From NCBI GenBank assembly GCA_027460535.1, contig JAPZAR010000010.1, positions 30,001 through 62,000 of the forward strand: a DNA stretch of 32,000 nt. Direction: 5' to 3'. Below, piece after piece: positions 11,234 to 30,685 of the stretch; the first letter of the stretch is position 1; each line of letters begins with the position of its first letter. The stretch comes from Candidatus Methanoperedens sp. GTDB taxonomy: Archaea > Halobacteriota > Methanosarcinia > Methanosarcinales > Methanoperedenaceae. A model generated the notes under the pieces. It did no database searches, was not told the origin of the DNA, and saw only the letters and a list, made by a program, of their open reading frames with translations. A program made the translations under genes and the position numbers.

Positions 11234-12531
11234 CGACAGTAATAACCGATGCCCTTTGCCCATTTTGCGGCTGCACGTGCGACGATATCACGATTGTGGT
11301 GGAGGATAATAAGATAATAGAGGCAAAACACGCCTGCAAGCTCGGTGCTGCAAAAATAATGGGGCATCACAGGATAAAAGCGCCAATGATGCGGTCCGAC
11401 AAAAACAGCGATTTCAAGGAAGTCTCGTACGAAGAGGCGATCGATGCGGCAGCCAGGATATTTGCCAAATCAAAAAGACCTCTGATGTATGGCTGGGCGT
11501 CGACGCTATGTGAGGTTCATAAAAAAGGTATCCTTCTTGCCGAGGATCTGGGCGCAATCATAGATAACACAGCTACTGTTTGTCATGGCCCTTCAACGCT
11601 CGCAGTCCATGAGAAGGGCCTACCGACTTCCACTCTTGGCCAGATAAAGAACCGGGCCGATGTTGTTGTATTCTGGGGGAGCAACCCCGTACACGCCCAT
11701 CCAAGACATATGGGACGCTATTCCGTTTTCGCCAGGGGATTTTTCTCGGATAAAGGAAGAAAGGGGCGCAAAATAATCGTTGTGGATGTGCGAAAGACCG
11801 ATACTGCAAATGTAGCCGATGAATATATTCAGGTGCAGCAGGGCAGCGATTATCTGGTGGTTTCGGCTCTCCGTGCGATACTATCAGGACACACAGACGT
11901 AGTCCCGGAGTCGGTCGGAGGTGTGCCGAAAGAACAGCTCGCAAAACTTGTGGAGACATTGAAAGCAGCGAAGTTCGGCGCGATCTTTTTCGGCATGGGT
12001 CTCACCCAGAGTGCGTCCAGGTATAAGAATATCGATAACGCCATTTCTCTCACATTTGAATTGAACTCATTTACAAAATACGTTATCATGCCGATGCGAG
12101 GACATTATAATGTAACTGGCTTCGGGCAGGTCTGTACCTGGGAAACAGGTTATGCCACTGCGGTGGATTTCTCGCGCGGGGCACCGTACTACAACCCTGG
12201 CGAGACAGCCTCCAACGATGTCCTTTACAGGAAAGAAGTAGATGCAGCAATGATCATTGCGGGGGACGCAGGAGCTCATTTCCCGGCAAACTCGGTCCGC
12301 CACCTTGCGAAGATACCTGTGGTGCAGATTGATCCTTACTGGAATCCCACCACAGAGATCTCCAATGTGGTGATACCAACGGCCATATGCGGCGTTGAGG
12401 TAGAGGGCACGGCTTACAGGATGGATGGGGTTTCTTTGCGTTACAGGAAGATGATAGAACCAACACATCCAACAGATCTTGAGGTACTTGAAAGAATACA
12501 CGAACGTGTCAGAGAATTAAGGGGTGAGTAA
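11230..12531 (+). CDS. fwdB: formylmethanofuran dehydrogenase subunit B (Cys-type)
   Basis: 433 aa. The N-terminal Fe-S motif is CPFCGCTCDD. A Cys falls at residue 118 in NTATVCHGPS, the position of the metal-ligating Cys/Sec in FwdB. Confidence 0.92.
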   Translation: MTTVITDALCPFCGCTCDDITIVVEDNKIIEAKHACKLGAAKIMGHHRIKAPMMRSDKNSDFKEVSYEEAIDAAARIFAKSKRPLMYGWASTLCEVHKKGILLAEDLGAIIDNTATVCHGPSTLAVHEKGLPTSTLGQIKNRADVVVFWGSNPVHAHPRHMGRYSVFARGFFSDKGRKGRKIIVVDVRKTDTANVADEYIQVQQGSDYLVVSALRAILSGHTDVVPESVGGVPKEQLAKLVETLKAAKFGAIFFGMGLTQSASRYKNIDNAISLTFELNSFTKYVIMPMRGHYNVTGFGQVCTWETGYATAVDFSRGAPYYNPGETASNDVLYRKEVDAAMIIAGDAGAHFPANSVRHLAKIPVVQIDPYWNPTTEISNVVIPTAICGVEVEGTAYRMDGVSLRYRKMIEPTHPTDLEVLERIHERVRELRGE

Positions 12532-12532
12532 C

Positions 12533-14251
12533 ATGGAGCTTCTAATAAAGAACGGGGCGTTATTTGACCCGGTCAATGGAATCAAAGGCGACAAAACGGA
12601 TATCCCGATCAAAGATGGAAAAATCGTAGACAAGGTCAGCAGCAGGGCGTCTTTGTTAGATGCAGGCGGCAGGCTTGTAATGGCGGGCGGAGTCGATGCC
12701 CATTCCCACATAGCTGGCGCAAAAGTGAACGTGGGAAGAGTAATGCGTCCCGAAGATACACGGTCGGGAATAAAACCAAGGACAAAAATAACAAGACCGT
12801 ACACAGGTTACACGGTCCCGAATGTTTATGCTATGGGGTACCGCTACGCCCAGATGGGTTATACAACTGTCTTTGAGGCGGCCCAGGCGATAATGAAAGC
12901 ACGCCACACACATGAGGAACTTGAGGAGATACCCATCATCGACAAGGGTGCCCTCACGCTTTTCGGGAGCAACTGGCCCACGATGGACTATGTTCGCGAG
13001 AAAAATATGGATAAGCTGGCAGCGTATGTGGCGTGGGGATTGCTTGCTTCCAGAGGCTTCGGCGTAAAGGTCGTGAACCCCGGCGGCGGCGAGATGTGGG
13101 GATTCGGCAAGAACGTGACAGGTCTTGATGACGTCGTCCCAAATTTTGAAGTCACGCCAAGAGAAATTATCGTGTCATTAATGAAAGCCAATGAAATGCT
13201 GGGGCTTCCGCATTCCGTGCATCTTCATTGCAACAACCTGGGAAAACCTGGGAATTACAAGACAACTCTTGCCAGCATGGAGCTTGCAAAACAGGTGAAA
13301 CCCAGCAAGGATAGGCAGGTTCTTCATGTGACCCATCTTACATTCAACGCATGGGGAGGTACGAATTGGGGAGACTTCGAATCCAAAGCAGATGAAATCG
13401 CAAATTTCCTCAATAACAGCGAGAACGTGACTAGCGATATGGGTCAGCTTATCTTTGGCAGCGCGACCACTATGACGGCTGATGGCCCGGTGCAGTACGC
13501 CAACGCAAAATTATTGCATGAAAAATGGGGTAACGGGGATGTAGAACTTGAAGATGCATCTGGCGTTGTGCCCATCTTCTATGCCAAGCAGGTCTCTATT
13601 CATGCCATAATGTGGGCGATAGGGCTTGAGCTGGCTCTCCTCACAAAAGATCCATACAAAGTGTTGATGACCACTGACCATCCGAATGGCGGCCCGTTCG
13701 TGAACTATCCCGAGGTCATGGCCCTTCTCATGAGCAATAGGAAGCGGCAGGAAGAGATCAAGACCCTGCATGAAGCGGTCCATAAACGGACTAAGATACC
13801 GGGAATTGATCGGGAACTTGACTGGAGCGAGATAGCGATAATGACAAGGGCAGGCCCTGCGAAAGTGCTCGGGCTGCTTGATACAAAAGGTCATCTGGGA
13901 GCTGGGGCGGATGCTGATATTTCAATATATGACATTAAGCCTGACCAGATAGACCCATCAGTGGAACATGCGAAGGTGAAAAGTGCCCTCCAATCCGCGG
14001 CTTACACAATCAAAGGCGGCGAGGTAGTGGTTAAAGACGGGCAGATAGTTGCAACGCCCGCGGGCAGGACTTTCTGGGTGGATGCGGGGGTTCCCGAGCA
14101 GCACATGGACGAGGTCATGAAAGACCTCCGTCTGAAATTCAGGAACTATTACTCTATACAGCTTGCCAACTATATGGTGCAAGATGCGTATGTCACCCAT
14201 CCGAGAGTGGTGAAAGCGGGTGTAATGCCTGTTATGGCGGAGGTGAGCTGA
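12533..14251 (+). CDS. fwdA: formylmethanofuran dehydrogenase subunit A (amidohydrolase)
   Basis: Amidohydrolase fold motifs are present (GGVDAHSHI, HLHCNNLG, TTDHPNGG). I place the start at the ATG at 12533, which is preceded by AGGGGTGA. The track's 12524 start is a GTG inside the fwdB stop region. Confidence 0.92.
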   Translation: MELLIKNGALFDPVNGIKGDKTDIPIKDGKIVDKVSSRASLLDAGGRLVMAGGVDAHSHIAGAKVNVGRVMRPEDTRSGIKPRTKITRPYTGYTVPNVYAMGYRYAQMGYTTVFEAAQAIMKARHTHEELEEIPIIDKGALTLFGSNWPTMDYVREKNMDKLAAYVAWGLLASRGFGVKVVNPGGGEMWGFGKNVTGLDDVVPNFEVTPREIIVSLMKANEMLGLPHSVHLHCNNLGKPGNYKTTLASMELAKQVKPSKDRQVLHVTHLTFNAWGGTNWGDFESKADEIANFLNNSENVTSDMGQLIFGSATTMTADGPVQYANAKLLHEKWGNGDVELEDASGVVPIFYAKQVSIHAIMWAIGLELALLTKDPYKVLMTTDHPNGGPFVNYPEVMALLMSNRKRQEEIKTLHEAVHKRTKIPGIDRELDWSEIAIMTRAGPAKVLGLLDTKGHLGAGADADISIYDIKPDQIDPSVEHAKVKSALQSAAYTIKGGEVVVKDGQIVATPAGRTFWVDAGVPEQHMDEVMKDLRLKFRNYYSIQLANYMVQDAYVTHPRVVKAGVMPVMAEVS

Positions 14252-15009
14252 TGCAGGAAGTTTTCATAAAGCCCAAAATGAAATTCGAGATATCCGTGGA
14301 GGCTGAAAACGTTTCTCCGGATAAGTTCTCGGGAAAGACAGAAAAAGAGATCCAGTCGCTGGAGGCCTGGATGGGAAATCAAAAGACCATGCTCGGTGAG
14401 CTTTTCTTGATCAGGGTGAACGGAGCAGGAGCTGCGGCGGATACGAAAATCGTCATGGAAGGCGATTTCTCGCGTGTTAAAAGGATAGGCGAAGGAATGA
14501 CAGCCGGGTTGATAATGATAAAAGGGAACGTGGATATGCACCTTGGCTCAAAGATGAGCGGCGGAAAAATATCCGTATCTGGAAATGTGGATTCCTGGGC
14601 AGGCAGGGAGATGAAAGGCGGGGAGATCATTATCGAAGGTGATGCCGCTTATTATCTTGGAGCTGGATACCGCGGAGAAAAATGTGGTATGCGAGGAGGT
14701 AAGATCACAGTTCTGGGGAATACACTTGACTTCGTGGGCGAGCATATGTGCGGTGGGGAGATCGTTGTGAAAGGCAACGCAGGGATACTTGCCGGATTGA
14801 GCAACAACGGCGGCAAGATCGTGATCGAAGGTAATACCAGCAGGCCGGGGAGCGAGATGGTGAAAGGTACAATAATAGTCAACGGTGCCGTTGATGAGAT
14901 GATGCCTGTTTTCAAGCTTGAAGGCACGGAGGCCGTGGACGGCGCCACTTACAGGAAATATACGGGGGATGTCATAGTAAATGGAAAAGGTCTGCTGTAC
15001 GTGAAGTAA
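14251..15009 (+). CDS. fwdC: formylmethanofuran dehydrogenase subunit C
   Basis: 252 aa with repeated glycine-rich beta-helix units (GGKISVSGN, GGEIIIEGD, GGKITVLGN, GGEIVVKGN, GGKIVIEGN). Its start overlaps the fwdA stop as TGATG. Confidence 0.92.
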   Translation: MQEVFIKPKMKFEISVEAENVSPDKFSGKTEKEIQSLEAWMGNQKTMLGELFLIRVNGAGAAADTKIVMEGDFSRVKRIGEGMTAGLIMIKGNVDMHLGSKMSGGKISVSGNVDSWAGREMKGGEIIIEGDAAYYLGAGYRGEKCGMRGGKITVLGNTLDFVGEHMCGGEIVVKGNAGILAGLSNNGGKIVIEGNTSRPGSEMVKGTIIVNGAVDEMMPVFKLEGTEAVDGATYRKYTGDVIVNGKGLLYVK

Positions 15010-15133: not shown

Positions 15134-15727
15134 TTATGAAAGTATGCTATAATAAATTATTAATAGAATTAGAATGATTGTTGAAATTAGTAAGGCCATA
15201 TCCAAAATTTTTTGGAAATAAATTTTCTTCTCTTTTTCATTTTCGATAATGGATGCGATATAGTCATCGATAGGTCTGCATACTTCTGGATTCTTTTGCT
15301 CAAAGCTTTCGATAGCAGATTTACCAATCGATGTAAGCACGCAATTTTGAAAATATTTTATATCCCCTTCTTTCATTAGCTTGTAAACATGTTTCTCAAC
15401 CACCATTGTCCTTATCTGGAGCGCTTTCGAGATATGGTTAATGGTCTTGAATCCATAAGCAATAGCCTTCAGGATAGCATAATCCACTTCCCCGAACTCC
15501 TTATCAGAATCAATTGCATCATGACTTCCTTGTTGAATTTCGATTCTTGACTTTGTCTCGACATAAGGCTCTTTTTTAAGGATAACATCATCTGAAGAAA
15601 TGGTCTCATGTTTTTCTTCTATACCCGGCATTTTTTCTGTGGTTTTTTTCTTAGGGATGATTTTTTCATACCATGGGCTGTCATCCATAAAAAAATCCAA
15701 GATTTTTTTGTTTTCTGTCCTATCCAT
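15134..15727 (-). CDS. membrane-tethered winged-helix DNA-binding protein
   Basis: 197 aa. The central segment is wHTH-like (YAILKAIAYGFKTINHISKALQIRTMVVEKHVYKLMKEGDI). A C-terminal TM helix is present (ILDMALLISTIILILLIIYYSIL). The start lies 2 nt after the upstream MinD gene. Confidence 0.55.
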   Translation of the reverse strand: MDRTENKKILDFFMDDSPWYEKIIPKKKTTEKMPGIEEKHETISSDDVILKKEPYVETKSRIEIQQGSHDAIDSDKEFGEVDYAILKAIAYGFKTINHISKALQIRTMVVEKHVYKLMKEGDIKYFQNCVLTSIGKSAIESFEQKNPEVCRPIDDYIASIIENEKEKKIYFQKILDMALLISTIILILLIIYYSILS

Positions 15728-15729
15728 AG

Positions 15730-16467
15730 TTATCTGAAAAACCTCTCAAAAATGCTCTTTTTCGGGGGTATATCGCATAATTTTTCAGCTATTCTCATCA
15801 CTGCTTTTGCGGCAGAGGATTTTGGCTTTAATGAAATGAGCGGTTTCCTGGCATCCCTTGCTTTGATGATGGCATCATCTTCGGGTATGATGCCGAACAC
15901 AGGCAACCCTAGCTTTACCCCGATATCTTCATAGATGCTCTTCTTATATTTGTTCACAATGACACCCGCGATGTTGATGCCGGCAAGCCCTGAAACAGCT
16001 TTCACCTTCTGCGCATCAGAAATAGAAGCAGGATCTGGATTGACAATGATCAAAACCTCATCTGAGTACGTCATGGGCAGTATGCTGAACTTGGAAAGGC
16101 CTGCTGCAACATCCAGGATTATGAAATCATATTCTCTCTTCCTTAACGCTGAAATAACATCCTCTAATTTATCTATGTTCGCATCCCGGAGGGTCTGCAG
16201 CGAAGAACCACATGGCAGGATATTGAGCCCCATCTGGATTGTGTATATCGCATTTTGGATCTCCGCTGTTCCATTGAGCACTTCAAGAAGCGTGACTATC
16301 GGTTTTTCAAGACCCGTATAGAGATCGAGATCCGGTAGGGATACATCAGTATCCACTACAAGGACTTTCTTTTTCAATGACGCGAGTGCAAATCCTATGT
16401 TCAATGCAACGGTTGTTTTCCCTACACCGCCTTTTCCTGAACCCATAGCGATTATTTTTGGAGCCAT
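15730..16467 (-). CDS. MinD/ParA-family P-loop ATPase
   Basis: 245 aa with the deviant Walker A GSGKGGVGKTT near the N-terminus and MinD-like overall length. Confidence 0.85.
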   Translation of the reverse strand: MAPKIIAMGSGKGGVGKTTVALNIGFALASLKKKVLVVDTDVSLPDLDLYTGLEKPIVTLLEVLNGTAEIQNAIYTIQMGLNILPCGSSLQTLRDANIDKLEDVISALRKREYDFIILDVAAGLSKFSILPMTYSDEVLIIVNPDPASISDAQKVKAVSGLAGINIAGVIVNKYKKSIYEDIGVKLGLPVFGIIPEDDAIIKARDARKPLISLKPKSSAAKAVMRIAEKLCDIPPKKSIFERFFR

Positions 16468-16471
16468 ATTA

Positions 16472-17842
16472 TCACTTTGATCTCTTCTTTAAATACAATC
16501 TTAATGCAAGTATGAATATGATAACTATGGAAAGTCCAATTATGGGTTTAAGCTGTGGTTTTTTTTCGATTTCAGGTACTGCGGTCACAGTGGGAGCGGT
16601 GGTAGCTGCCTCTACAAAAAATACCTTGCTCAGAGCCGAATTTCCTATCGTTACTCTGTACGCGCCGAGGTCAGATCTCGTGACAGTGAACTTAATATCC
16701 TCTATTTCCGAAAAATTCAGATATACCTCGCGTTCCTCTTGCAGGGCATCATTGATGAAAATATCCACGGGCTGTGATCCGTCCTTACCTGTATTTTCCA
16801 CGGTCACAGAAATGGTCACTGTTTGATTTGGCGGAACGCTCAAATGATCTATCTGTATATCCTTAAAATCGAATGCGGTAGGTATTTCGATCTTTTTTTC
16901 AGCGCTTACATTGAAGACCGTGGATAGTTCTAGACCTACCGTGTTATTCCCCGTAGGGATGATCTCCAAGCTGTGGTTCCCAACGGTTTCCGATGAGACC
17001 GTGAACGAGACCGGCTGGCTTTGGTAAGCTCCTATTTCGATCGTGGTATTGTCTATTAATTTACCGTCAAGTAACAGGGAAAGGGAGGTCGTTCCTGCCT
17101 CATAAAAAGTATTTGTGACATCAGCGCTCACGAGAACAGGTTCATTCGGGAACACACTCCTTCTGTCAAGTACGATGTTTTCTACTTTGAACCTGTCCAC
17201 GGGGTATTTGCTTGCATATCTGTCTATATAAAAGTTCTTATTGATCGAGATCTCCTGTGTATTTAATAATCCGCTCTCATTTGTTATATCACTCCGGTCT
17301 AAGTACGGGATATCTGGTTTACTGCTTCCGTTCAGATATGAAAAGGTCACATCAGAATAGTACTGATCCATAATGGAATCATTGAGAAGGTCAAAAATAT
17401 GGATCTCTGCGGTATAAATGCCGTCCTCCCAGCTCGTCGGCACTTCCCTTGAATAGGTGATGAAATCATTCTCCCTGTAATCCTCGTATCTGTCACTGTA
17501 CGCTGCAGTATCCACTATGTTATTATTAGAATCCCTGATAATGAATACATAATCCACACCTACTTCGCGCCTGTGATTTACTCCATTAGCTTCGGCGTAG
17601 ATCTTTAGGATGCTGCCCGGGGGAAATCTATCGTTCCAGTGCAGGTCGTAGTCCTGTAATCCCCTTACGTTGTAGACTATTCTGGCATATCCGGTATCTA
17701 TTGCCAATGAGGGGAGAGGTAATATTGCGAGCATAATAACCAGAATTATCATGGGTATATAATTCATGGACAACATAATACAAATTTGCTTATAAAGATT
17801 TTGAAAAAATTTGCATATGCAACGCATGAATTTTTTGTTCAT
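16472..17842 (-). CDS. CARDB-repeat cell-surface protein with a C-terminal TM anchor
   Basis: Has a signal-like N-terminus; an alternative start is MNYIPMIILV at 17767. Two CARDB-like repeats are present (VLVSADVTNTFYEAGTTSLSLLLDGK...; VTISVTVENTGKDGSQPVDIFINDA...). The C-terminus is a hydrophobic helix plus a basic tail (IIGLSIVIIFILALRLYLKKRSK). Many N-x-S/T sequons occur. Confidence 0.7.
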   Translation of the reverse strand: MNKKFMRCICKFFQNLYKQICIMLSMNYIPMIILVIMLAILPLPSLAIDTGYARIVYNVRGLQDYDLHWNDRFPPGSILKIYAEANGVNHRREVGVDYVFIIRDSNNNIVDTAAYSDRYEDYRENDFITYSREVPTSWEDGIYTAEIHIFDLLNDSIMDQYYSDVTFSYLNGSSKPDIPYLDRSDITNESGLLNTQEISINKNFYIDRYASKYPVDRFKVENIVLDRRSVFPNEPVLVSADVTNTFYEAGTTSLSLLLDGKLIDNTTIEIGAYQSQPVSFTVSSETVGNHSLEIIPTGNNTVGLELSTVFNVSAEKKIEIPTAFDFKDIQIDHLSVPPNQTVTISVTVENTGKDGSQPVDIFINDALQEEREVYLNFSEIEDIKFTVTRSDLGAYRVTIGNSALSKVFFVEAATTAPTVTAVPEIEKKPQLKPIIGLSIVIIFILALRLYLKKRSK

Positions 17843-17997: not shown

Positions 17998-18990
17998 TTA
18001 TTTTTTCCAGGCATAACCATTCTCGGGATTTTTTTTTTCTTTCTCTAATTTATGTTCAAGCTTCATAATTGAAGCCTCGAACAATTCTTTAAATAATCCT
18101 TTTTGTTGCAATGCAAAAAAACCGCTTTCTATGGTTTCGGGCTTCCTTGGGGCAATAAAGGGCAGACTTCCTGTGGATGAATATACAGCCCAGAGATAAT
18201 AAATAAATGTGTAAATACCCACGAAAACGTACATTGTAGCCATCATTACATTATAATTCAAAAGGTTGCCCAGGAGCATTACGGTTACTGGTATGGCAAG
18301 GATTGGCAAAAAAACCATGGACCATGCGGTAGCCTCTTTCCAGAGACCGTATTCGTTTGTAATGAATACCCACCACATGATAAATATCAGAAGAATTGCA
18401 TAGGGTGTGATGCCACTGAGGTTGAAATTTACAAAGAACATGAACGCGGCCATTGTTACTGTCATTAAAAAGATCGTTTTGATCGCAAATTTGATGGAGG
18501 TCCCCACCGCAATGGGCTCCTGCATGAGATCTTTTGATCTTATATCCCTTTCATACCGTTCTTCCAGGATATTCTGGACCTTTAGATCGATATTTGACAA
18601 TCGGTCCAGGACGACATTCGTTCCAATGTGAGCCTGTGCGATGTTTTCGATCAGGGGCTCCAATCTTGCGTAGACCCCATCCTGGAATGCTGTATCGATC
18701 AATACCTCGGTAACGATTCTTCTCTTGAATGTTCTAAAAATAAAATATATCGGACCAATGAATATTATAATAAGAGATATATCTATTAATGCATAAAGAT
18801 AATTTGCGCTGGCAAAATCAATAAAAAAGGAAACGGCTGAAAATAGCAATATTGCTATCGTAATGATCAAAGCGCTTATCAAGCCTATTTTCTCAAAGAA
18901 TTGCAAATGCTGGATTGGCTTTTCAGATATATCCTCATCAACATCGAGCAAAGGGTTCTTCATTTTATCACGGCTATTGCTGGGTCCCAT
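17998..18990 (-). CDS. polytopic (~6 TM) membrane protein of unknown function
   Basis: 330 aa with six hydrophobic helices and a ~75-aa loop between TM2 and TM3. No His or Cys occurs in the helices. Its start overlaps the 3' end of the upstream cytochrome gene by 17 nt. Confidence 0.65.
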   Translation of the reverse strand: MGPSNSRDKMKNPLLDVDEDISEKPIQHLQFFEKIGLISALIITIAILLFSAVSFFIDFASANYLYALIDISLIIIFIGPIYFIFRTFKRRIVTEVLIDTAFQDGVYARLEPLIENIAQAHIGTNVVLDRLSNIDLKVQNILEERYERDIRSKDLMQEPIAVGTSIKFAIKTIFLMTVTMAAFMFFVNFNLSGITPYAILLIFIMWWVFITNEYGLWKEATAWSMVFLPILAIPVTVMLLGNLLNYNVMMATMYVFVGIYTFIYYLWAVYSSTGSLPFIAPRKPETIESGFFALQQKGLFKELFEASIMKLEHKLEKEKKNPENGYAWKK

Positions 18991-20527
18991 TAATATATAT
19001 GGTTACCTGAGGCTCTGTATATATTTTGAAGTGTAATGAATTATTCGGAACAGGATTGTTGGTGTTCTTGCATGCCATGCAGAGATACGATTGAATAAAT
19101 GCCGGCTCCGCACCAATTGAATTTTCTATACCACCCATTGCAGTGCTATTGTAGACGGGAATTTGCGCATTTTCATTCAGATTTACAAGAAGATCGGGTT
19201 TGCCATGGCAATCCAAGCAGGTTATCTGAATTGCACCATGGTTTGGAGAGTTAAATGGATACGCAGGATATGGTGTGGTTCCATTGCTGTTCTGGGTGCT
19301 GGGTCTATGACAGGATTTGCAGTAAGAATTCATATCTGTATAATCAGTAAAATTATGTTTCTGTTTCCATTGTTCATTGGAATGCCCACCAGAAATCACG
19401 GCATCGTTTATATCACTGTGGCAGGATATGCAATCAATCCCGGATATATCTGAGATATTATGTATTTTTCCATTTAAATATTTTGTCACATTTACTTCTT
19501 TTGTAAGCCCATAAGTAAGATTCTCTATCGTCCAGGTACCTGACGAATCCACAACGTCCCATTCGATAAAACTTGGTCTCGTAAAACTTATGTTCGTATT
19601 GAAACTCGAATGGCATGACGTGCATGCGACATCATTTCCTGTGGATATGTTGCTGTTATTAGCGCTTATGACAAATGGGATATGCGCATCCGGTCCATTC
19701 AGGTCACCTGCGTAAACAGGTGCAGTTCTCGCTGGATTACCATTCTGGTCAGTTACGTTCAGCGGTGTAGCACCATGGCAATAGAGGCATGGAGGTACGC
19801 TTGAGGCATGATATGAGGAATATAGCTGATGGCATGAGCCGCATGAAAAATCTTTGTGATGGAAAGAGCTGTTTAGCTGGTCTCTCGTTTCTGAATGGCA
19901 TTTTTCGCATTTCAGCTGTGTTAGGGCAGGGAATTCATGTATACCCGTAGATTCGTTGTCCTGTATCAATAAATGCCTGCTAAAATCATTCTTTGAATAA
20001 TTTGACAGCTGCCATGAGCTATCGTTTGTCCTGTCAGCATTGAATTCATACGTTAAAGCATATAGCATCGAGATAGTAAGCGACTTGGCGGTATGGCACG
20101 AAACACACGCCTCGTTCTCTCCTTTCAGGAATGGAGATGAATTGGCACCCGTTATGAAAGGATTGTGAGATTCATCATTCATAATATTCTCCCCGAAAAC
20201 CTTGGCTAGTGGAGAAACGCTTGTGTTCCCGTCGGAATCAACCGTTCGGTTCGAGGTTCCATGGCAATCAAGGCATCGGGGACTGATCACATTCCCATGC
20301 GTGAGGTTTGAGCTGGTATTCAGGACATGGCAGTTTTCGCATGTGAAAGATGTGTGGATTCCGGAGAGAAGAAGTTCAGACTTTATGTCCGAATGGCACT
20401 TAACGCAATAAGAATTATTTGAATCATAGAACCAGTGCTGACCTCCCAGAAGTGAAAAGATCGCGGGTATAGCGAGAATAGCGATCGAGAAAAGAGCCGT
20501 GACAAGAAAGAAGTGCCGAAGTTCCAT
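18974..20527 (-). CDS. multiheme c-type cytochrome with 11 CXXCH plus 1 CXXCK
   Basis: 517 aa. I counted CVKCH, CENCH, CLDCH, CVSCH, CEKCH, CGSCH, CLYCH, CTSCH, CISCH, CKSCH, CLDCH and a terminal CMACK. The N-terminus has a signal peptide followed by LLGGQHWFY. More than 20 N-x-S/T sequons occur. Confidence 0.9.
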   Translation of the reverse strand: MELRHFFLVTALFSIAILAIPAIFSLLGGQHWFYDSNNSYCVKCHSDIKSELLLSGIHTSFTCENCHVLNTSSNLTHGNVISPRCLDCHGTSNRTVDSDGNTSVSPLAKVFGENIMNDESHNPFITGANSSPFLKGENEACVSCHTAKSLTISMLYALTYEFNADRTNDSSWQLSNYSKNDFSRHLLIQDNESTGIHEFPALTQLKCEKCHSETRDQLNSSFHHKDFSCGSCHQLYSSYHASSVPPCLYCHGATPLNVTDQNGNPARTAPVYAGDLNGPDAHIPFVISANNSNISTGNDVACTSCHSSFNTNISFTRPSFIEWDVVDSSGTWTIENLTYGLTKEVNVTKYLNGKIHNISDISGIDCISCHSDINDAVISGGHSNEQWKQKHNFTDYTDMNSYCKSCHRPSTQNSNGTTPYPAYPFNSPNHGAIQITCLDCHGKPDLLVNLNENAQIPVYNSTAMGGIENSIGAEPAFIQSYLCMACKNTNNPVPNNSLHFKIYTEPQVTIYINGTQQ

Positions 20528-20550: not shown

Positions 20551-21276
20551 TTATCTACTTTGCCATGGCTTTTGTTTCATCGTCAGGCCGACGTACAGAA
20601 GGAGAGAGAATGCCGCTATAACATAACCATAGATCTTCACGACCTGGAAGAAAAGGAAATATTTATTGTAGTCAGTTCCAAAAGGACCGAAATCCTGGTG
20701 CCTATCATCCACTATGAAAAATTTTCCATACCCTTTGATAACTATTGGTTTCCCATTCATCAGGATAGCTTTTCCCAGGATATCTTCTTTTTTGATGTCC
20801 CACCAGTCCACCTGGCCTGTGGCATCCCCGGCCGTATGAATGCCTTCTTTGGTGATGCTTACGATCCGGTGCGAAACCGGATTCGAGGTATCGGGCCGTT
20901 CGAACATTATTATATCTCCGGTTTTGTAGGTGTGCTCTATATTCTGCATCAGGATAATATCGTTAGTATTGAATGTCGGGGACATGCTCCCCGATGCCAC
21001 AGCCGTTAAAAAGATCGCTTTTGTGGAGAGCAGGCCCATTATGAGCAATACGCACATGAGTGCCGATGCCTCTTTAAAGAACACCTTCTGAAAATCCAGA
21101 GGTCGCCTGTTTATTTTTTTGATATATCTGTCCATTCTCTGCTTTCTGCCAAATTCCCAGTATCGTTGCCTGATGGTTTCAAGGACGTCCGTATTTTGTA
21201 CGATTTTTCTGTAAACAAGCATCAAGAAAATACCGAGCGATACCAGGAACAGTATATCATTTAGTGGTATATACAT
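20551..21276 (-). CDS. type I signal peptidase (S26 family, archaeal/ER Ser-His type)
   Basis: 241 aa. The boxes are SGSMSPT (catalytic Ser), GDIIMF, SHRIVS (His in place of the bacterial Lys) and TAGDATG. TM helices are present at the N- and C-termini. Confidence 0.8.
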   Translation of the reverse strand: MYIPLNDILFLVSLGIFLMLVYRKIVQNTDVLETIRQRYWEFGRKQRMDRYIKKINRRPLDFQKVFFKEASALMCVLLIMGLLSTKAIFLTAVASGSMSPTFNTNDIILMQNIEHTYKTGDIIMFERPDTSNPVSHRIVSITKEGIHTAGDATGQVDWWDIKKEDILGKAILMNGKPIVIKGYGKFFIVDDRHQDFGPFGTDYNKYFLFFQVVKIYGYVIAAFSLLLYVGLTMKQKPWQSR

Positions 21277-21308: not shown

Positions 21309-22022
21309 TCAGGGATTGAGGGGGTCCCATCCTATTGGGGTCGGAGATATAGAGATCACAGGTTGTGTCGAATTGTTTACTCCGCCGGACTGGTTGCCGT
21401 ATGTCTGTATGAAAGCTGATCCTTCGATCGTGAAGTTGCCAACTGTCCATGTACGGCTGCCGTCCGAGGACATGTTCTCCTGTGCATCAAAGGCTATTTT
21501 GTACGCTTTCGTCCAGTTGATATCTACGGCTACGTGCGTGTGGCATGCGATACATGCTTCATTGGCTCCCTTTAGCAGGGAAGAGTTGCTAGCCGCGTTT
21601 GCGAACGGCTTGTGGACCTCCTCAGGTCCATTGAGAATATTTGTTGCGTTCAATCCAGGTTCGAATGATGCGTTATGGCAGTCCAGGCAGGCGGGAGATG
21701 CAGCCGCATGGAATTGACCACCTGTTAAATCAGGGGGTCCATTAACGATACCTTCTTTTTGCATCGCTGTCGTCATATGGCATCCTTCGCAGCCGTATGC
21801 CCTGTGGGCTGCATTGACCCCCCCTGGCTGTTTTAGCTCTGCAAAGATATCGGCATGACATTTTCCGCAGGGAATATTGGTTGTAGTTCCTCCTCCATAA
21901 ACATTATTGCTTATCGTATCATAGAAATTATGCTGGCCTACGAATAACGCAAGTGTCTGTGGCAGAGCTACAAGTCCCACAGCTGCTATTGCCAGCCCGA
22001 TTAACATCAATTTGGTAGCCAT
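21309..22022 (-). CDS. tetraheme c-type cytochrome, LFxGQH family (paralog A)
   Basis: 237 aa with CGKCH, CEGCH, CLDCH and CIACH. The Sec-type signal is MATKLMLIGLAIAAVGLVALPQTLA, followed by LFVGQHNFY. Eight N-x-S/T sequons occur. A GGAAGAGGT ribosome-binding site is present. Confidence 0.9.
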   Translation of the reverse strand: MATKLMLIGLAIAAVGLVALPQTLALFVGQHNFYDTISNNVYGGGTTTNIPCGKCHADIFAELKQPGGVNAAHRAYGCEGCHMTTAMQKEGIVNGPPDLTGGQFHAAASPACLDCHNASFEPGLNATNILNGPEEVHKPFANAASNSSLLKGANEACIACHTHVAVDINWTKAYKIAFDAQENMSSDGSRTWTVGNFTIEGSAFIQTYGNQSGGVNNSTQPVISISPTPIGWDPLNP

Positions 22023-22209
22023 TTATTCTGGTACCTCTTCCTATCCGGAATTATAAAGGCGTATTTTATATATCTTCTTATGGGAAATATACTTTCCGAT
22101 TTCAAAACACATGACATGATTTTAATAAGTTTTATAATTATATGCTCCTTGCCTTTATTAAAAATGCTGGCATGGGAAAAAAAATAGAAATATTCAATGG
22201 CTCAAACAT

Positions 22210-22245
22210 AAAAAAATAAATAGGAAAAATTTTTTTTTCCTATTT
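22210..22245 (-). terminator. AT-rich hairpin plus T7 run downstream of tetraheme paralog B
   Basis: On the minus strand the sequence reads TAAataggaaaaaaaaatttttcctatttattttttt. The 12-bp stem is aaataggaaaaa / tttttcctattt and overlaps the stop codon. A T7 run follows. Confidence 0.4.
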
Positions 22246-22975
22246 ACGGAGTGCTCGGGTCCCATCCTGGCGGTGTTGGCGATACAGTTACAACCGGTGC
22301 GGTAGAAGCATTATTTTCACCTGACATGTTACCATAGGTCGTTATATTGGCGGAGCCCTGAATTCCAAAGCTGCTGATATTCCATGAATGGGTGCCGCTG
22401 CCGTCAGTGGCCATTTGTGCTACTGAGGTAAAGTTCATCATGTATGCCTTTGACCAGCTGATATTCACGGCCACATGCGTGTGGCATGCGACACATGCTT
22501 CGTTAGCCCCCTTCAAAAGGGAAATATTATTGGTCTGATTTGCAAATGATGCATGAACTTCTACATTGGTTATAACTCCCGTTGTGTTAGTAACAATTCC
22601 AAAAATATTACGTGCATCGTTTATGCCTGTGCTATTTCCATCATGGCAATCTAAACAGGCAGGAGCTGCAGCAGCGTGGAACTGCCCTGTAGGCCCGTTA
22701 TAGAAACCTTCCTTTTGGAGCGCTAGCATGTGGCATCCTCCGCAGCCCTGTTGAAGGTGAACTGAATTTACCGCTCCAGCCTGTTTCAACTCTGCATATA
22801 CATCAGCATGGCATTTTCCGCAAGGGATATTGCTTCCGTTGCCAAAATTGTAGAAATTAGTCGTCATCGTATCGTAGAAATTATGCTGCCCTGCGAATAA
22901 AGCCAGCGTCTGCGGCAGCGCGACCAATCCTACTGCCGCGACTGCAAATCCCATGAGCACAAGTTTGTTCACCAT
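22244..22975 (-). CDS. tetraheme c-type cytochrome, LFxGQH family (paralog B, tandem to A)
   Basis: 243 aa with CGKCH, CGGCH, CLDCH and CVACH. The signal MVNKLVLMGFAVAAVGLVALPQTLA is followed by LFAGQHNFY. The C-terminus SPTPPGWDPSTP is shared with paralog A. An AGGTGA ribosome-binding site is present. Confidence 0.9.
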   Translation of the reverse strand: MVNKLVLMGFAVAAVGLVALPQTLALFAGQHNFYDTMTTNFYNFGNGSNIPCGKCHADVYAELKQAGAVNSVHLQQGCGGCHMLALQKEGFYNGPTGQFHAAAAPACLDCHDGNSTGINDARNIFGIVTNTTGVITNVEVHASFANQTNNISLLKGANEACVACHTHVAVNISWSKAYMMNFTSVAQMATDGSGTHSWNISSFGIQGSANITTYGNMSGENNASTAPVVTVSPTPPGWDPSTP

Positions 22976-23094: not shown

Positions 23095-23523
23095 TTATTT
23101 CCAGAACATATTATCCACTACATAGCCTATCCTGTTCCCGTCTTTATCGACAACGATAATGGAAATATGCACGATGTCGCCGGATACGGGATTATGATCC
23201 TCCTGGAAACCTATGTTGAAAGAATATTTTCCGTTTCCCTTGTAGGTCAGCATTTCCCATGGACCGATAGTGCTGTTTGGACCTTTAGATATCATCGTCC
23301 TGGCACCTATGGCCGGGAAAGAATCAGCCTCCGTGTTTCTCGGTCTGTTGAGGTAGGCCACAGTTCCCTGAGTCAATGTGTAGTTCTGAGCGACGACAAT
23401 TCCCTGGTTTTCCACAAAGGCAATATTTACTTTCACAACAGGCACCTGCTTGGCAGGATTGGTTATACATCCTGAGAATAGTATCACGGGAAGGATCAAC
23501 AATATCATAAGAATTTTTTTCAT
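23095..23523 (-). CDS. small putative lipoprotein of unknown function (paralog of 30223..30684)
   Basis: 142 aa. The N-terminus MKKILMILLILPVILFSGC is lipobox-like. The C-terminal half aligns with 30223..30684 (GKYSFNIGFQEDHNPVSGDIVHISIIVVDKDGNRIGYVVDNMFW vs GVYTLRMFFRDGMEPKKGDVLIIPIRLVSHTGAIQYKTTAFYCW). Confidence 0.65.
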   Translation of the reverse strand: MKKILMILLILPVILFSGCITNPAKQVPVVKVNIAFVENQGIVVAQNYTLTQGTVAYLNRPRNTEADSFPAIGARTMISKGPNSTIGPWEMLTYKGNGKYSFNIGFQEDHNPVSGDIVHISIIVVDKDGNRIGYVVDNMFWK

Positions 23524-23527
23524 AAGA

Positions 23528-24196
23528 TTACCTTATCATTTGAAACAGCGAATCTATCATTTTTCCTATCAACTGACCGATAGTGGGATACTCAAGAGCG
23601 GCAGCGGCCTGAAGGTTTGGCACAGAGGGTGGTGGCATTTTCTGGCCTGCAAACGTCTCTCCGAACTCACCATGGCATGCAACGCACATTTTTTCAAGCC
23701 TTTTGCCATGGACCACATGCGGATCGCCGCCGTGGCAGTCCGAGCATTTTGTCTTCTCTGGTTTTTGAACCGTATTGTTCATAAATGTATGGCAGCTACG
23801 GCATGACACGTTGCTCATAATCCTGTGGAAATCCGCTGCGGTAACATTATTCCCATCTTTATTCCCCACATGGCACTTGATGCACACTATATCCTTATGG
23901 ATTTCGAAGATCTGGGCCATATCCACTTTTAACCCTTGAGCATTTTTTGGCTTGTAATCATGGCATTTACATCCATTGGATATTGACTGTGCTTTCTCGG
24001 TTCCAAGTAGCGTGTAATGGCAGGGGATACAATAGCTCCCGGGATGCCAACTTTCGGTCAATCCATCCGTGAATTGCGGTCTTTCGTATGCATTTGAAGG
24101 CATCGCCAGGATAAACGGGATTATGAGGGAAAAGATCAAAATTATCTTCTGAAACTCATATACTGCATTCCTTTTTAAACTATTTTCACTGGACAT
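23528..24196 (-). CDS. multiheme c-type cytochrome with 5 CXXCH plus one shifted CXCH
   Basis: 222 aa with CIPCH, CIKCH, CRSCH, CSDCH and CVACH. GCKCH occupies the position where the paralog 29545..30147 has CGNCH. The signal peptide ends in SNA. A C-terminal amphipathic helix is present. Confidence 0.9.
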   Translation of the reverse strand: MSSENSLKRNAVYEFQKIILIFSLIIPFILAMPSNAYERPQFTDGLTESWHPGSYCIPCHYTLLGTEKAQSISNGCKCHDYKPKNAQGLKVDMAQIFEIHKDIVCIKCHVGNKDGNNVTAADFHRIMSNVSCRSCHTFMNNTVQKPEKTKCSDCHGGDPHVVHGKRLEKMCVACHGEFGETFAGQKMPPPSVPNLQAAAALEYPTIGQLIGKMIDSLFQMIR

Positions 24197-24215: not shown

Positions 24216-25841
24216 TTATCTTCTGAAATTATGTCTTTTTATTAACCATATAACTATGAAAAGCATGATAAAAATATATCCCTGGAATCCGGACGCCGGT
24301 TTTGGCGTCGTGACAGGCGTCCCGGTGATCCCTGGAGTGGCGGTCTGCACCGGGATACGGGTAACTTCAATAGCAGGGCCTTCCAGCTTCAAAGGTTCCC
24401 TGACATCCAAAACAAGATAGTTTGAAACAGCCCTCTGCGTGTACCTTTCATCCAGATAGAGAAACTGGTCCAAAACTATCGCCTTTGCAGGAGGGATAAC
24501 AAAACTGCCCGAAGCATTTGCATTGAGTGCATAAGAGAAGGATGCCGATTCCCCGGAATGAAGCACAACCGTATTTAAAACAACCTTATATTTTTCAGGC
24601 GACGCGTTTGAGATGGAGTTGTCAGGTGGTAGGCCATCACTCAGTTTTACTATCGCGGTGGCGTCCCCCTGGTTTTTTGCCTCCACTGTAACACTGATAT
24701 TCTCTCCCACAACAGGATTGATAATGTTTGCGGATTTGACCAATACCACATAAGGACCATTAACTATCAGCTTGGCAGGTTTTTCATTGTACCCGAATCC
24801 CCCCGGGTATTCGAAAATCGAGCTTCCGGGCATTAATAGATAAGTCCCTGGCTTTTGTGGTTTTATAGCATAGGATATCAATTTATGCTCAAGAGGTCCC
24901 AGCGAAAAATTCCATGAAAGGTTCGTATCCAGCGGTTCAAGGTCCGGGGGCAGACTGTCGGTGAGGCTCACGTTATCGATCGGCAGGCTGAGATTGTTGG
25001 TAAGGCTTAATGAAACCACGGCAATATCACCCATGTATATTTTTTCGGAAACAAATTTTCCAAACATTATCCTTTTATCCATCTCCCTTACTTCGATATA
25101 GGTTGAATCAACGGCCTTGTAGGCTCTTCTCAGAACGTCATTTCCGTTTACCTCAGCTGAGATCTGGAAGGACTTGCCCTCTGTTATATACGGAGCTTTG
25201 AACCTGACTGTGATAATATCAGATTCATTTCCAGCTTTCAATTCGGGCAATTCATAGTCGAGTCTCTCATGCGCTAGCGGAGGTAATGACGTATTGATTT
25301 GTAAAGTCGGGCTTCTTAACGAGCCTTTGCCGTCATTCCTGATGGTAAAATTGATCGAGATCTCAGAGCCTGGAGCAAATATGCGACTTACAATCGTTCT
25401 ATTATTGAAATGCTTCTCAGCAGGGAGGACTGATAATTTAGGTAACGGGGTACCCGGGACTCGTGTCCGGATCTTTACCCACTGGTCCGCGATCGCATTT
25501 ACTCCATGGGCTGCACCGATGTTCGCGAACCTGTCCTGAAGATCAATAATTGTAATATTCAACCTGTTATCAATAGAAAAAGAATCATTGATCCGCGTAA
25601 TGTTACTTGTAACCAGCCTGTGGTCAGAATCGTACACTGTTATCAGGGCCATGAGATCCTTGAAATCCGTATTATTATAGAAACCCGTTGCCTCGATCTG
25701 GAAACCTTCTCTGGTGAAAGAATCGGTAAATCTCAATGTTTTTTCCTGCGGGTCGACCCATTCTATCTCATCTGCGAATGCAGGATAAATACCTGTGTAA
25801 ATCAAAATTAAAACTATCACTATTTTGTAGAGGTATTTCAT
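24216..25841 (-). CDS. DUF11/CARDB-like repeat cell-surface protein with a C-terminal anchor
   Basis: 541 aa with signal MKYLYKIVIVLILIYTGIYPAFA. Repeats of the type ...LTNN..LPIDNVSLTDSLPPDLEP and ...EAKNQGDATAIVKLSDGLPPDNS are present. The C-terminus is PASGFQGYIFIMLFIVIWLIKRHNFRR. Confidence 0.7.
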   Translation of the reverse strand: MKYLYKIVIVLILIYTGIYPAFADEIEWVDPQEKTLRFTDSFTREGFQIEATGFYNNTDFKDLMALITVYDSDHRLVTSNITRINDSFSIDNRLNITIIDLQDRFANIGAAHGVNAIADQWVKIRTRVPGTPLPKLSVLPAEKHFNNRTIVSRIFAPGSEISINFTIRNDGKGSLRSPTLQINTSLPPLAHERLDYELPELKAGNESDIITVRFKAPYITEGKSFQISAEVNGNDVLRRAYKAVDSTYIEVREMDKRIMFGKFVSEKIYMGDIAVVSLSLTNNLSLPIDNVSLTDSLPPDLEPLDTNLSWNFSLGPLEHKLISYAIKPQKPGTYLLMPGSSIFEYPGGFGYNEKPAKLIVNGPYVVLVKSANIINPVVGENISVTVEAKNQGDATAIVKLSDGLPPDNSISNASPEKYKVVLNTVVLHSGESASFSYALNANASGSFVIPPAKAIVLDQFLYLDERYTQRAVSNYLVLDVREPLKLEGPAIEVTRIPVQTATPGITGTPVTTPKPASGFQGYIFIMLFIVIWLIKRHNFRR

Positions 25842-27443: not shown

Positions 27444-27853
27444 GATTTTACTACATCATATCCTATTTTAAAACTATGCACGCAGGCATGCAGTCTTTAA
27501 TAATTAAATCTATCAGGCAGCGGAATAGCTCAAATCTTTGGATTGTATTTATTCGAGTATTGTAGTATAACATTTATAACAACCTTGCAGATTTATAGTA
27601 CATGCAATAAAGTATATGTAATTATGATTATGCTCATTATTATTAGTATCATAATTATTTTAATCATTTTAAAAATCGTTAACTATAAATACCGGAATAC
27701 AGTATACTAATTATACCCAAATTAAACCCAAATTTGGAGTAATGGATAGGATAGGAGTAAAAGCAAAAAAATGATGCAGACGTATTCTGTTCTTGAATTA
27801 CTGCTTTGGGAAGATGGGCTATATTAACAATAGATAGGAAGGATGAAAAAAAT
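27444..27853. promoter_or_regulatory. 410-bp AT-rich divergent intergenic (promoter) region
   Basis: It lies between the divergently transcribed propeller gene (-) and the pentaheme gene (+). It is very AT-rich with several TATA-like runs (tttataac, tttatagt, ctataaatacc). No convincing ORF is present. Confidence 0.4.
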
Positions 27854-29155
27854 ATGAATGCAAAATTTAGTTTAGCCTTAATTGCGTTAGTTGGAGTAGG
27901 CGTGTTCGCTCTGCCATCCACGATGGCATTGTTCGCAGGGCAGCACTCATTCTACAACATCGACGCAACAGGCAATCAGGTACCGTGTCAGAAATGCCAC
28001 GGTGACGTGAAAGCAGAATTGAGCAGTGGAGCTTCAGCGACCACAGGCACCCCAGGACCCCACGCAAATTTCAAATGCGAATATTGCCACAGGGCTGAGG
28101 CAGGCGCAGCAAGCGGTGACGATGCATCAGCAGAGATCAGTTATAGGGCAGTGGCCCCGGATACTGGGAGTATTAAACTCGTAACTACAGTGCAGAATTT
28201 CGAGAGAGGGAACTTCCCCAAGAATATCACTTATAGGACTGGCATGACCGTGGACAACTGGAATGCGACACCTTCAGATATACAAAATCTGGACGGCTCA
28301 AATTTCAATGACCAGTTAGCATACCGGGATAACAGTGCTAAGTACAGGGGCAGCCTGACCACCTTTGGTACCAATGGTGTAAAATACAGCTATTCCGGCT
28401 CCTCTGAAGTAGGACTTCGGCCTAACGGAGTGCCGAAAGATACACAACTGACGACGCAGAACACGGCGTTCAATCCAAGAGCGGTAAATTTCACTGGAGT
28501 GACGACTGCAAACTATGATTTCGCAGGTTCAAGAGAAGTCACACCGGGTTCACAGTACCATGCAGCATCTCTCGTCTCATGCCTGGAATGCCATGGCGGA
28601 GAAAAGGAAACGGGTATTGCAGGATACGAGATCGAAAGCGGACCTCCCTATAAACACGAGTCATGGCTACTTAACGGCGAAGGCGGAAGCAGCTGCAATG
28701 ACTGCCACTATGGTGGAAGTGCACTGAGGGAGCGGAATCTCGCTGCAGGTGGATTCGGCTTGACCCCATATGGCAACGACACCGGCGCAATAGAAGCCCA
28801 TAATGCCTTCGTGAAGACGGATGACGGCCTTGACAGGTTCGGCTACGGCGCATCCAATGGCGCATGCATCGCATGCCATACGCACGTTGCAGTGGACATC
28901 ACCTTCCAGAAGGGCTACACGCTATCCTTTGACGCAATCGAGAACTCAGGTACATACAGCGTTGGCAACTTCGCTGTCGGAGGACAGGTCAATGTCGAAA
29001 TATACGGCAATGGCTCAGGCCAGACATTCGCAACCGGCAACAAGACCTATACCTGGACGCCAAGCAGTACGCTGTATCTTAATGGAAACAGTACACAGGT
29101 CAGCGGTCTAAATGGAGATAATAACGACACTGCAGCAGCTTTAACATCCCCGTAA
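27854..29155 (+). CDS. pentaheme c-type cytochrome, LFxGQH family (paralog C, with insertion)
   Basis: Contains CQKCH, CEYCH, CLECH, CNDCH and CIACH. I place the start at the ATG at 27854 (MNAKFSLALIALVGVGVFALPSTMA, then LFAGQHSFY), which matches the paralog N-termini. The track's 27806 start is a TTG. Confidence 0.9.
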   Translation: MNAKFSLALIALVGVGVFALPSTMALFAGQHSFYNIDATGNQVPCQKCHGDVKAELSSGASATTGTPGPHANFKCEYCHRAEAGAASGDDASAEISYRAVAPDTGSIKLVTTVQNFERGNFPKNITYRTGMTVDNWNATPSDIQNLDGSNFNDQLAYRDNSAKYRGSLTTFGTNGVKYSYSGSSEVGLRPNGVPKDTQLTTQNTAFNPRAVNFTGVTTANYDFAGSREVTPGSQYHAASLVSCLECHGGEKETGIAGYEIESGPPYKHESWLLNGEGGSSCNDCHYGGSALRERNLAAGGFGLTPYGNDTGAIEAHNAFVKTDDGLDRFGYGASNGACIACHTHVAVDITFQKGYTLSFDAIENSGTYSVGNFAVGGQVNVEIYGNGSGQTFATGNKTYTWTPSSTLYLNGNSTQVSGLNGDNNDTAAALTSP

Positions 29156-30147: not shown

Positions 30148-30222
30148 ATGCACCAGGAAAAAAACTTTAAATACAAAATTTTACTGCTGATACTTTCAGT
30201 ATATGGATAGGAGCGAATGTAA

Positions 30223-30684
30223 ATGGATAAGAAAAAAATCTTAAAATACACAGTGGTAGTGCTGTTGATACTTTCGGTATCAGGGTATTACCTATACCAG
30301 CATGCTTTAGATATCGGCCTGGAAAAACCAGCACTTGTACTGACGGTCTCTACGAATCTGACAGATAAGGGTACCCCAATAATCAACAATGTCACATTCG
30401 AGGAATCCAGTGTGATGTTCTTCTATAAGAGAGCGGATACGCCTGCGAATTTCCCGGAAATAGACGCTAACGCCCGAATCAATAAGCTTGCCGCAATTCC
30501 TGCGAGCTTTTGGGCTTCAATTCATCGCCCAAGCGAAGGCGTGTATACCCTGAGGATGTTCTTCAGGGACGGTATGGAACCTAAAAAAGGCGATGTCCTG
30601 ATCATACCGATCCGCCTTGTAAGCCATACGGGAGCCATCCAGTACAAAACAACAGCTTTCTATTGCTGGAGTTGTGAGGAATGA
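30223..30684 (+). CDS. small N-terminally anchored protein of unknown function (paralog of 23095..23523)
   Basis: 153 aa with an N-terminal TM helix (ILKYTVVVLLILSVSGYYLY) and no lipobox Cys. The C-terminal half aligns with 23095..23523. Confidence 0.65.
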   Translation: MDKKKILKYTVVVLLILSVSGYYLYQHALDIGLEKPALVLTVSTNLTDKGTPIINNVTFEESSVMFFYKRADTPANFPEIDANARINKLAAIPASFWASIHRPSEGVYTLRMFFRDGMEPKKGDVLIIPIRLVSHTGAIQYKTTAFYCWSCEE

Positions 30685-30685
30685 G

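Follow-up and report, generated by a model that had tools for sequence, protein, structure and literature searches.

In anaerobic methanotrophic archaea (ANME), a signal peptidase gene and a gene for an unannotated "8x TMH" protein have been reported beside multihaem cytochrome genes by Chadwick et al. 2022 (PLoS Biol, PMC9012536). As set out in the passages of that paper that deal with the pair, the 8x TMH protein also occurs in Syntrophoarchaeum, Argoarchaeum, Geoglobus and Ferroglobus, the pair is confined to cytochrome-bearing ANME and their relatives, both genes are absent from cytochrome-free ANME-1, and the role proposed for them is in cytochrome maturation, by cleavage of the cytochrome signal sequences; in a table of the same paper, Methanoperedens BLZ1 and M. 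nitroreducens each have two peptidases and a single 8x TMH gene. That cytochrome clusters of ANME contain a dedicated signal peptidase is already published and is not new here. The subject of the present analysis is S26a, a signal peptidase gene in a stretch of 32,000 nucleotides (nt) from Candidatus Methanoperedens sp., an ANME-2d archaeon (GenBank assembly GCA_027460535.1, contig JAPZAR010000010.1, positions 30,001 to 62,000 of the forward strand), hereafter called the window. The reading that we favour, at slightly better than even confidence, is that S26a is a specialised signal peptidase that is tied to, and processes, cytochromes of the type of AvECN, the extracellular cytochrome nanowire (ECN) subunit of Archaeoglobus veneficus (PDB 8E5G), and that it belongs to a co-transcribed cassette with a membrane protein, TM330. 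What we add to the published pair is the link to a nanowire subunit, a conserved motif, the duplication of the cassette, and a version of the module that is free of cytochromes.

The gene order around S26a resembles that of the Chadwick pair as the paper presents it, in which a single gene separates the peptidase from a multi-pass membrane protein and multihaem cytochromes are adjacent, and it is from gene order that we infer the match. S26a lies within two genes of a multi-pass membrane protein and inside a multihaem cytochrome cluster, and the BLZ1 protein KPQ41181.1 falls within the 66%-identity cluster of S26a. In ANME-2a/2b/3, however, the published pair has CcmF2 and MHC-B, a giant S-layer cytochrome, as its neighbours, which is not the arrangement found here. 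The paper also predates the AvECN structure, and its account of the pair includes neither a tetrahaem nanowire-subunit neighbour nor the LPxTxS↓LFxGQH motif (the arrow marks the predicted cleavage site), the cassette duplication, or the wider module with CARDB and MinD proteins. Besides Chadwick et al. 2022, the searchable literature held no paper linking a signal peptidase to Methanoperedens or AvECN. According to a 2026 review of Methanoperedenaceae, AvECN homologues occur in this family and no filament has yet been seen; the same review counts among the open questions whether conductive appendages exist.

Other described systems share single features with this locus. AvECN resembles the tetrahaem cytochromes that flank S26a in its four CxxCH motifs and in an N-terminal LF.GQH..Y segment; unlike in the window, the related peptidase of its host lies at 1.64 Mb and apparently not beside AvECN. 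SipW, from the tapA-sipW-tasA operon of Bacillus subtilis, is likewise an endoplasmic reticulum (ER)/archaeal-type Ser-His signal peptidase coded amid the genes of the extracellular fibre subunits that it processes. This likeness is an analogy only: the SipW system makes a TasA fibre and not a haem cytochrome, and the extra N-terminal helix and the TM330 partner belong to S26a. A reading made earlier from the DNA letters and their translations (the sequence-only reading) had drawn this comparison, and its fibre analogy is strengthened because the neighbouring tetrahaems are homologues of the solved filament subunit AvECN, whereas SipW orthology was rejected, with S26a scoring 41.2 bits against the SipW model NF046067, for which the cut-off is 190. 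The SipW-cognate signal-peptide models gave no match in any neighbour of S26a. The OzpA/OmcZ system of Geobacter differs in that OzpA is a serine protease and not an S26 signal peptidase, and in its cytochrome family; a cluster with OmcZ and an OzpA-like protease has been described in Methanoperedens (Ouboter et al. 2024, PMC10874420).

The core of the locus consists of four genes:

20551-21276, minus strand: S26a, a 241-residue archaeal/ER-type signal peptidase I with an ATG start and with Pfam and NCBIfam matches
21309-22022, minus strand: ECN_A, a 237-residue tetrahaem cytochrome with four CxxCH motifs, an AvECN homologue with the N-terminus ...LPQTLA↓LFVGQHNFYD and its own AT-rich upstream region
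18974-20527, minus strand: MHC517, a cytochrome with 11 CxxCH motifs and one CxxCK, 22 N-x-S/T sequons and the ECN-type N-terminus ...IPAIFS↓LLGGQHWFYD
17998-18990, minus strand: TM330, a membrane protein with at least six predicted helices, the conserved partner of the peptidase

The ECN_A reading frame ends 32 nt upstream of the S26a start and the MHC517 frame starts 23 nt past the S26a stop, exactly the spacings that the sequence-only reading had given. Neither gap contains a T-run terminator, and further downstream the TM330 start overlaps MHC517 by 17 nt, an arrangement that agrees with the operon proposed in that reading. Its count of twelve haem motifs in the downstream cytochrome stands for eleven of them, the twelfth being CMACK. 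A hairpin with a T-run terminator, at about 22200-22243, comes right after the stop of a second tetrahaem gene, ECN_B (22244-22975, minus strand; a 243-residue paralogue 62% identical to ECN_A), and is followed by the AT-rich stretch that precedes ECN_A. Because of this terminator and the AT-rich region before ECN_A, the sequence points to ECN_A, S26a, MHC517 and TM330 as the likely transcript. For the same reason, ECN_B looks like a separate transcript, probably one that is strongly expressed.

S26a scored above the cut-offs of both family models to which it was compared, with 28.5 bits against Pfam Peptidase_S26 (PF10502; gathering cut-off 22.9) and 63.2 bits against the NCBIfam archaeal equivalog TIGR02228, sigpep_I_arch (cut-off 51.85). 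The three boxes by which the gene had been recognized as an S26 peptidase were located at residues 95-101 (SGSMSPT), 135-140 (SHRIVS) and 150-154 (GDATG). The nucleophile Ser97, in the S-x-S-M-x-P box, aligns to Ser56 of SEC11A, and the catalytic set is Ser/His/Asp, with His136-Arg137 and Asp residues, and not Ser/Lys, which supports the archaeal/ER-type assignment. In a sequence search, human SEC11C and SEC11A were the closest solved relatives, with the SGSM and HR boxes aligned, and a fold search with an AlphaFold2 model of S26a (predicted local distance difference test score, pLDDT, 76) likewise gave SEC11A/C as the best matches. These subunits of the eukaryotic signal peptidase complex share the Ser-His-Asp chemistry, but SEC11 has one N-terminal anchor and sits in a four-subunit complex, whereas three helices are predicted for S26a and its partner is another protein. 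Ser97, His136, Arg137, Asp151 and Asp157 are invariant in 42 diverse subfamily members, and in an alignment of 131 sequences conservation of the catalytic Ser, His and Asp motifs reaches at least 90%. This invariance implies that S26a should be an active Ser-His-Asp peptidase, that is, a catalytically competent archaeal/ER-type S26 signal peptidase of a specialised subfamily.

The same residues bear on the suggestion that S26a could be a non-proteolytic chaperone or polymerisation factor like SipA/LepA of the Streptococcus pyogenes pilus operons. S. pyogenes SipA (4n31) was indeed among the fold-search matches, and the S26a gene adjoins that of a filament-subunit homologue. SipA is reported to lack the catalytic residues, whereas in the S26a subfamily the Ser, His and Asp were present in 42 of 42 diverse members. 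The candidate of an inactive SipA/LepA-like homologue was rejected because of this conservation, and we regard a purely non-proteolytic role as very improbable.

Membrane helices are predicted at about residues 5-26, 62-84 and 203-234 of S26a, and the catalytic beta-domain spans about residues 88-170. The first of these helices corresponds to the N-terminal extension with an extra helix that the sequence-only reading had singled out; it was recovered both by hydropathy (residues 3-21) and in the AlphaFold2 model (residues 5-26), and it is found in every clade of the subfamily. Together with a basic linker and a C-terminal GKPIVIKG..G.YFI region before the last helix, it distinguishes the subfamily from ordinary archaeal signal peptidases, in which these traits are absent. 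The basic linker (residues 27-61) suggests a cytoplasmic loop, and the predicted topology comprises three membrane helices, with the N-terminus and the catalytic domain outside, the linker in the cytoplasm and the C-terminus on the inner face.

The reading frame of S26a is kept at full length in 90 homologues, all of about 240 residues and 45-88% identical, which come from Candidatus Methanoperedens and Methanosarcinales metagenome-assembled genomes (MAGs); because of this conservation it is not a chance open reading frame. An exhaustive search of 1.84 billion representative sequences gave 2890 S26 relatives at E≤1e-3, merely 94 of them at E≤1e-10, and full-length matches ended at about 80 clusters. 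The subfamily is both small and distinct. Those of its matches that bear names belong to Methanoperedens, Methanosarcinales or A. veneficus, and the S26-carrying loci of a genome scan extend it to ANME-1, Syntrophoarchaeum, GoM-Arc1 and Methanocellales.

The link between S26a and nanowire-type cytochromes begins with its upstream neighbour. ECN_A aligned to AvECN with an E value of 2.4e-29 over residues 4-217, which is nearly its full length, and the alignment included the N-terminal LF.GQH..Y segment and the four CxxCH motifs. An ECN-type N-terminus is common to six cytochromes in and just past the window. Among 85 unique cytochromes from the fetched loci, the logo reads L-P-[SQ]-T-[VL]-[SA]↓L-F-x-G-Q-H-x-W-Y, with Pro at position -5 in 83 of the 85 and Thr at -3 in 74, so that the cleavage-site-like motif noticed in the cytochromes next to S26a was recovered in the wider set. 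The residues at -3 and -1 (T-x-[S/A] before L-F) are compatible with a type I signal peptidase site. If S26a does process these proteins, ECN-type precytochromes would be exported by Sec and their haems attached outside the membrane; S26a would cleave the unusually conserved signal peptide after the predicted site L-P-x-T-x-[S/A]; the mature N-terminus L-F-x-G-Q-H would thereby be released; and the freed subunit would leave the membrane and join an extracellular cytochrome assembly. TM330 would serve as the partner of S26a in this process, either by handling substrates or as a platform for assembly.

The mature side of the motif has a probable function of its own. As judged from the alignments, the His at position +6 of LFxGQH is probably an axial haem ligand, and the conservation of this segment is probably due at least partly to that role. 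Outside the CxxCH motifs of the tetrahaems, H31, H105 and H137 are invariant and H73 has an equivalent in all six sequences; these positions would supply the four distal ligands that a tetrahaem needs. According to a preprint, the number of histidines that ligate a haem of an adjacent subunit is 0, 1 or 3 in the solved filaments, and a review gives OmcS and OmcE one such inter-subunit histidine and OmcZ none. Taken together, the counts of the former and the assignment of the latter mean that at least one archaeal filament uses inter-subunit haem ligation. We infer that the N-terminal His is possibly among the inter-subunit ligands and that the ECN-type tetrahaems of Methanoperedens may likewise form filaments.

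The association of the peptidase with cytochromes and TM330 was then followed across lineages. In two Methanoperedens genomes, in which the peptidase is merely about 50% identical, the order cytochrome, peptidase, multihaem cytochrome, membrane protein of about 330 residues, CARDB protein and MinD-like ATPase is kept. In more distant relatives the order is tetrahaem, peptidase, membrane protein, and in one uncultured relative this run is followed by an S-layer-type giant cytochrome. When 185,579 species genomes were scanned with a tetrahaem alignment, 78 loci were returned, and 20 of these have an S26 peptidase within 10 kb of the tetrahaem. The peptidase is found at about +700 nt in eight of the nine closest Methanoperedenaceae-type loci, and others of the peptidase-bearing tetrahaem loci come from GoM-Arc1, two Methanophagales, a Syntrophoarchaeum, a Methanocellales MAG and one Archaeoglobus MAG. 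GoM-Arc1, Methanophagales, Syntrophoarchaeum and the Methanocellales MAG also retain the gene order tetrahaem, S26, TM330, in some cases with a multihaem cytochrome before TM330. The Methanocellales MAG has a minimal three-gene cassette of tetrahaem, S26 and TM330. Flanks of at least 3 kb on each side are available for 31 of the 47 distinct peptidase loci, and in this sample, which is biased in that many loci were found through the cytochrome, a TM330 gene lies within 4 kb of the peptidase in 25 loci, a multihaem cytochrome within 5 kb in 23, and a CARDB homologue within 5 kb in 19.

TM330 is encoded two genes downstream of S26a, and a multi-pass membrane protein of this type is almost always paired with the S26a subfamily, over at least four archaeal orders. 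It probably corresponds to what Chadwick et al. 2022 call the 8x TMH protein. TM330 had no relatives in Pfam, NCBIfam or PDB. Residues W206, W207, P229, P234, Y260, Y264 and Y265 are invariant in the TM330 family.

By extending the analysis 10 kb past the window end, we found a second, paralogous cassette in divergent orientation, which starts inside the window at 27806. Its order is cytochrome, small open reading frame, cytochrome, orf142-like gene, cytochrome, CARDB-like gene, a second peptidase (S26b), cytochrome and TM330-like gene. The genes of this cassette, with those past the window given in the coordinates of the extended locus (L090), are:

27806-29155, plus strand: MHC449, a cytochrome with five CxxCH motifs and the N-terminus LPSTMA↓LFAGQHSFYN, first gene of the cassette
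29545-31645, plus strand: cyt200 (like cyt222, listed below), p153 (like orf142, listed below) and cyt319 (ECN-type N-terminus)
L090 12958-13644, about 1.2 kb past the window end: S26b, the second peptidase, 228 residues, of the same subfamily
L090 12958-15408, about 1.2-3.6 kb past the window end: the run S26b, cyt294, TMb293

S26b is 33% identical to S26a and scored 81.7 bits against TIGR02228, and TMb293, the TM330-like protein, is 29% identical to TM330. The genome thus has at least two cassette-linked peptidases, and the presence of a second paralogous peptidase cassette next door argues against a single housekeeping enzyme.

Downstream of TM330, the window continues with three genes that form part of a wider module:

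16472-17842, minus strand: CARDB456, a CARDB-domain surface protein that has a signal peptide and, at its C-terminus, a membrane anchor; it belongs to the wider peptidase module
15730-16467, minus strand: an archaeal MinD-type ATPase of the wider module (TIGR01969, 218 bits, cut-off 201.75)
15134-15727, minus strand: orf197, with a weak, sub-threshold helix-turn-helix (HTH)-like match (TIGR01884) and a C-terminal membrane anchor, which travels with the MinD-like gene

The S26/TM330 pair is accompanied by a CARDB protein, a MinD-type ATPase and a membrane-anchored HTH-like protein both in the window (15134-17842, minus strand) and in locus L011 (6358-11563). The same company is found in A. veneficus and in metagenome loci without cytochromes.

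Several observations weigh against a dedicated role of S26a in the processing of cytochromes. Haem ligation by itself can account for the conservation of the mature-side part of the motif. The nearest non-ANME clade of the subfamily includes the A. veneficus enzyme, and in that complete genome no gene with a cytochrome Pfam match lies within 10 kb of the peptidase, at 1.64 Mb; its neighbours are a TM330 homologue, a CARDB protein, a small HTH-like protein and a MinD-like ATPase. A. veneficus makes AvECN filaments, yet its S26-TM330 pair sits with CARDB and MinD. A metagenome scan that used peptidases of the A. veneficus clade as query, and which was unbiased as to cytochromes, gave 22 loci, of which eight hold the module in cytochrome-free form and four have cytochromes, while several are orphans without partner genes. 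One subclade (P0093/P0118) is an orphan among housekeeping genes such as those for SRP19 and EPSP synthase (L007 696-1394; L092, L097 and L101), and its loci have no TM330, CARDB or cytochrome neighbours. No S26 gene was found within 10 kb of about 30 Archaeoglobaceae ECN loci or of the distant ECN paralogues of Methanoperedens. Finally, a canonical housekeeping signal peptidase was not found in Methanoperedens: the window contains no S26 gene besides S26a, matches to a profile of canonical ER-type peptidases were dominated by candidate-phyla-radiation bacteria, and none of the ten canonical-looking named matches was from Methanoperedens. Consequently, the S26a subfamily could also process general secretory proteins.

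The cytochrome link of the peptidase is not universal. As regards the restriction to cytochrome-bearing organisms described by Chadwick et al. 2022, the named matches and the loci that carry S26 belong to Methanoperedens, ANME-1, Syntrophoarchaeum, GoM-Arc1, Archaeoglobi and one MAG of the Methanocellales, and some of the loci have no cytochromes. The expectation that orthologues would be linked to LFxGQH cytochromes elsewhere holds at 50% identity and in ANME-type lineages, and fails in A. veneficus, in the eight metagenome loci and in the orphan subclade. Given the cytochrome-free modules of A. veneficus and the metagenomes, the most general conserved unit is the peptidase with TM330, often with CARDB and MinD, and the link to cytochromes holds in ANME-type lineages.

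This distribution would suit an envelope module, made up of S26, TM330, CARDB, the MinD-like ATPase and the membrane-anchored HTH-like protein, that matures or positions a non-cytochrome surface structure, with CARDB as the cognate substrate and with cytochromes recruited in ANME-type lineages only. In addition to the cytochrome-free loci and the 19 of 31 well-flanked loci with a CARDB homologue, the homology between the window and A. veneficus proteins (E 8.7e-14 for CARDB and 2.4e-54 for MinD) and the CARDB-like gene directly before S26b in the second cassette, as in A. veneficus, speak for such a module. However, minimal cassettes that consist of tetrahaem, S26 and TM330 and have neither CARDB nor MinD occur in the Methanocellales MAG and in loci L008, L010 and L089, and the CARDB protein carries an ordinary signal peptide, without a family-wide motif. 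The phyletic pattern given by Chadwick et al. 2022 in its treatment of the pair ties it to the presence of cytochromes, and A. veneficus encodes AvECN elsewhere, so that module and cytochrome still share a genome. We consider it rather unlikely that cytochromes are secondary clients in this way.

The subclade next to SRP19 and the missing canonical paralogue, which was not located in the searches made, also bear on whether S26a is simply one of the general signal peptidases, without substrate specificity, that happens to sit among the genes of heavily secreted proteins. S26a passes the archaeal signal peptidase I equivalog model, and the -3 and -1 residues of the cytochrome motif (Thr and Ser/Ala) would suit any type I signal peptidase. 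On the other hand, the two paralogues stand in two paralogous cytochrome cassettes within 13 genes, the pairing with TM330 is conserved over at least four orders, and the extra helix and the C-terminal GKPIVIKG..G.YFI region are specific to the subfamily, which is small and of narrow phyletic range. Furthermore, the pair is absent from cytochrome-free ANME-1 in the account of Chadwick et al. 2022. A general enzyme without specificity therefore appears quite unlikely to us.

A stronger form of the favoured reading, in which S26a is a specialised peptidase for AvECN-type cytochromes, would make the tetrahaem, S26 and TM330 a dedicated assembly machinery for archaeal cytochrome nanowires. Cleavage at LPxTx[S/A] would free LFxGQH, the His of which would ligate a haem, possibly in the neighbouring subunit; removal of the signal peptide would trigger polymerisation; and TM330 would be the membrane platform. 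This unit is extended in some lineages by CARDB, the MinD-like ATPase and the membrane-anchored HTH-like protein. We hold this proposal only tentatively and rate its probability as rather low. If true, it would describe a maturation-coupled assembly pathway, which has so far been shown for no cytochrome filament. The export, maturation and assembly of extracellular cytochrome filaments are not settled, and a compact cassette of subunit, peptidase and membrane partner, present in several orders, offers a concrete and testable unit.

The remaining features of the cytochrome cluster lie beyond ECN_B:

23095-23523, minus strand: orf142, a small lipobox-like secreted protein with homologues beside ECN-type tetrahaems in many loci
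23528-24196, minus strand: cyt222, a pentahaem cytochrome whose signal peptide is ordinary and lacks the ECN motif
24216-25841, minus strand: a 541-residue DUF11/CARDB surface protein, syntenic in the orthologous clusters of Methanoperedens

Homologues of orf142 (MKKILMILLILPVILFSGC...) stand beside ECN-type tetrahaems in 39 of 89 loci, including the loci of peptidase-free tetrahaem paralogues, and orf142 may accompany the tetrahaem more faithfully than the peptidase does. N-x-S/T sequons number 8-11 in the tetrahaems, compared with the 22 of MHC517. In locus L004, the orthologous cluster is bordered by an AglB/STT3 oligosaccharyltransferase and by PMT_2 glycosyltransferases. On the other side, the cytochrome cluster of the window adjoins mcrA (2424-4124), genes for formylmethanofuran dehydrogenase-type subunits (10856-15009) and a gene for a B12-binding/radical SAM/PqqD protein (4929-7100), on the plus strand.

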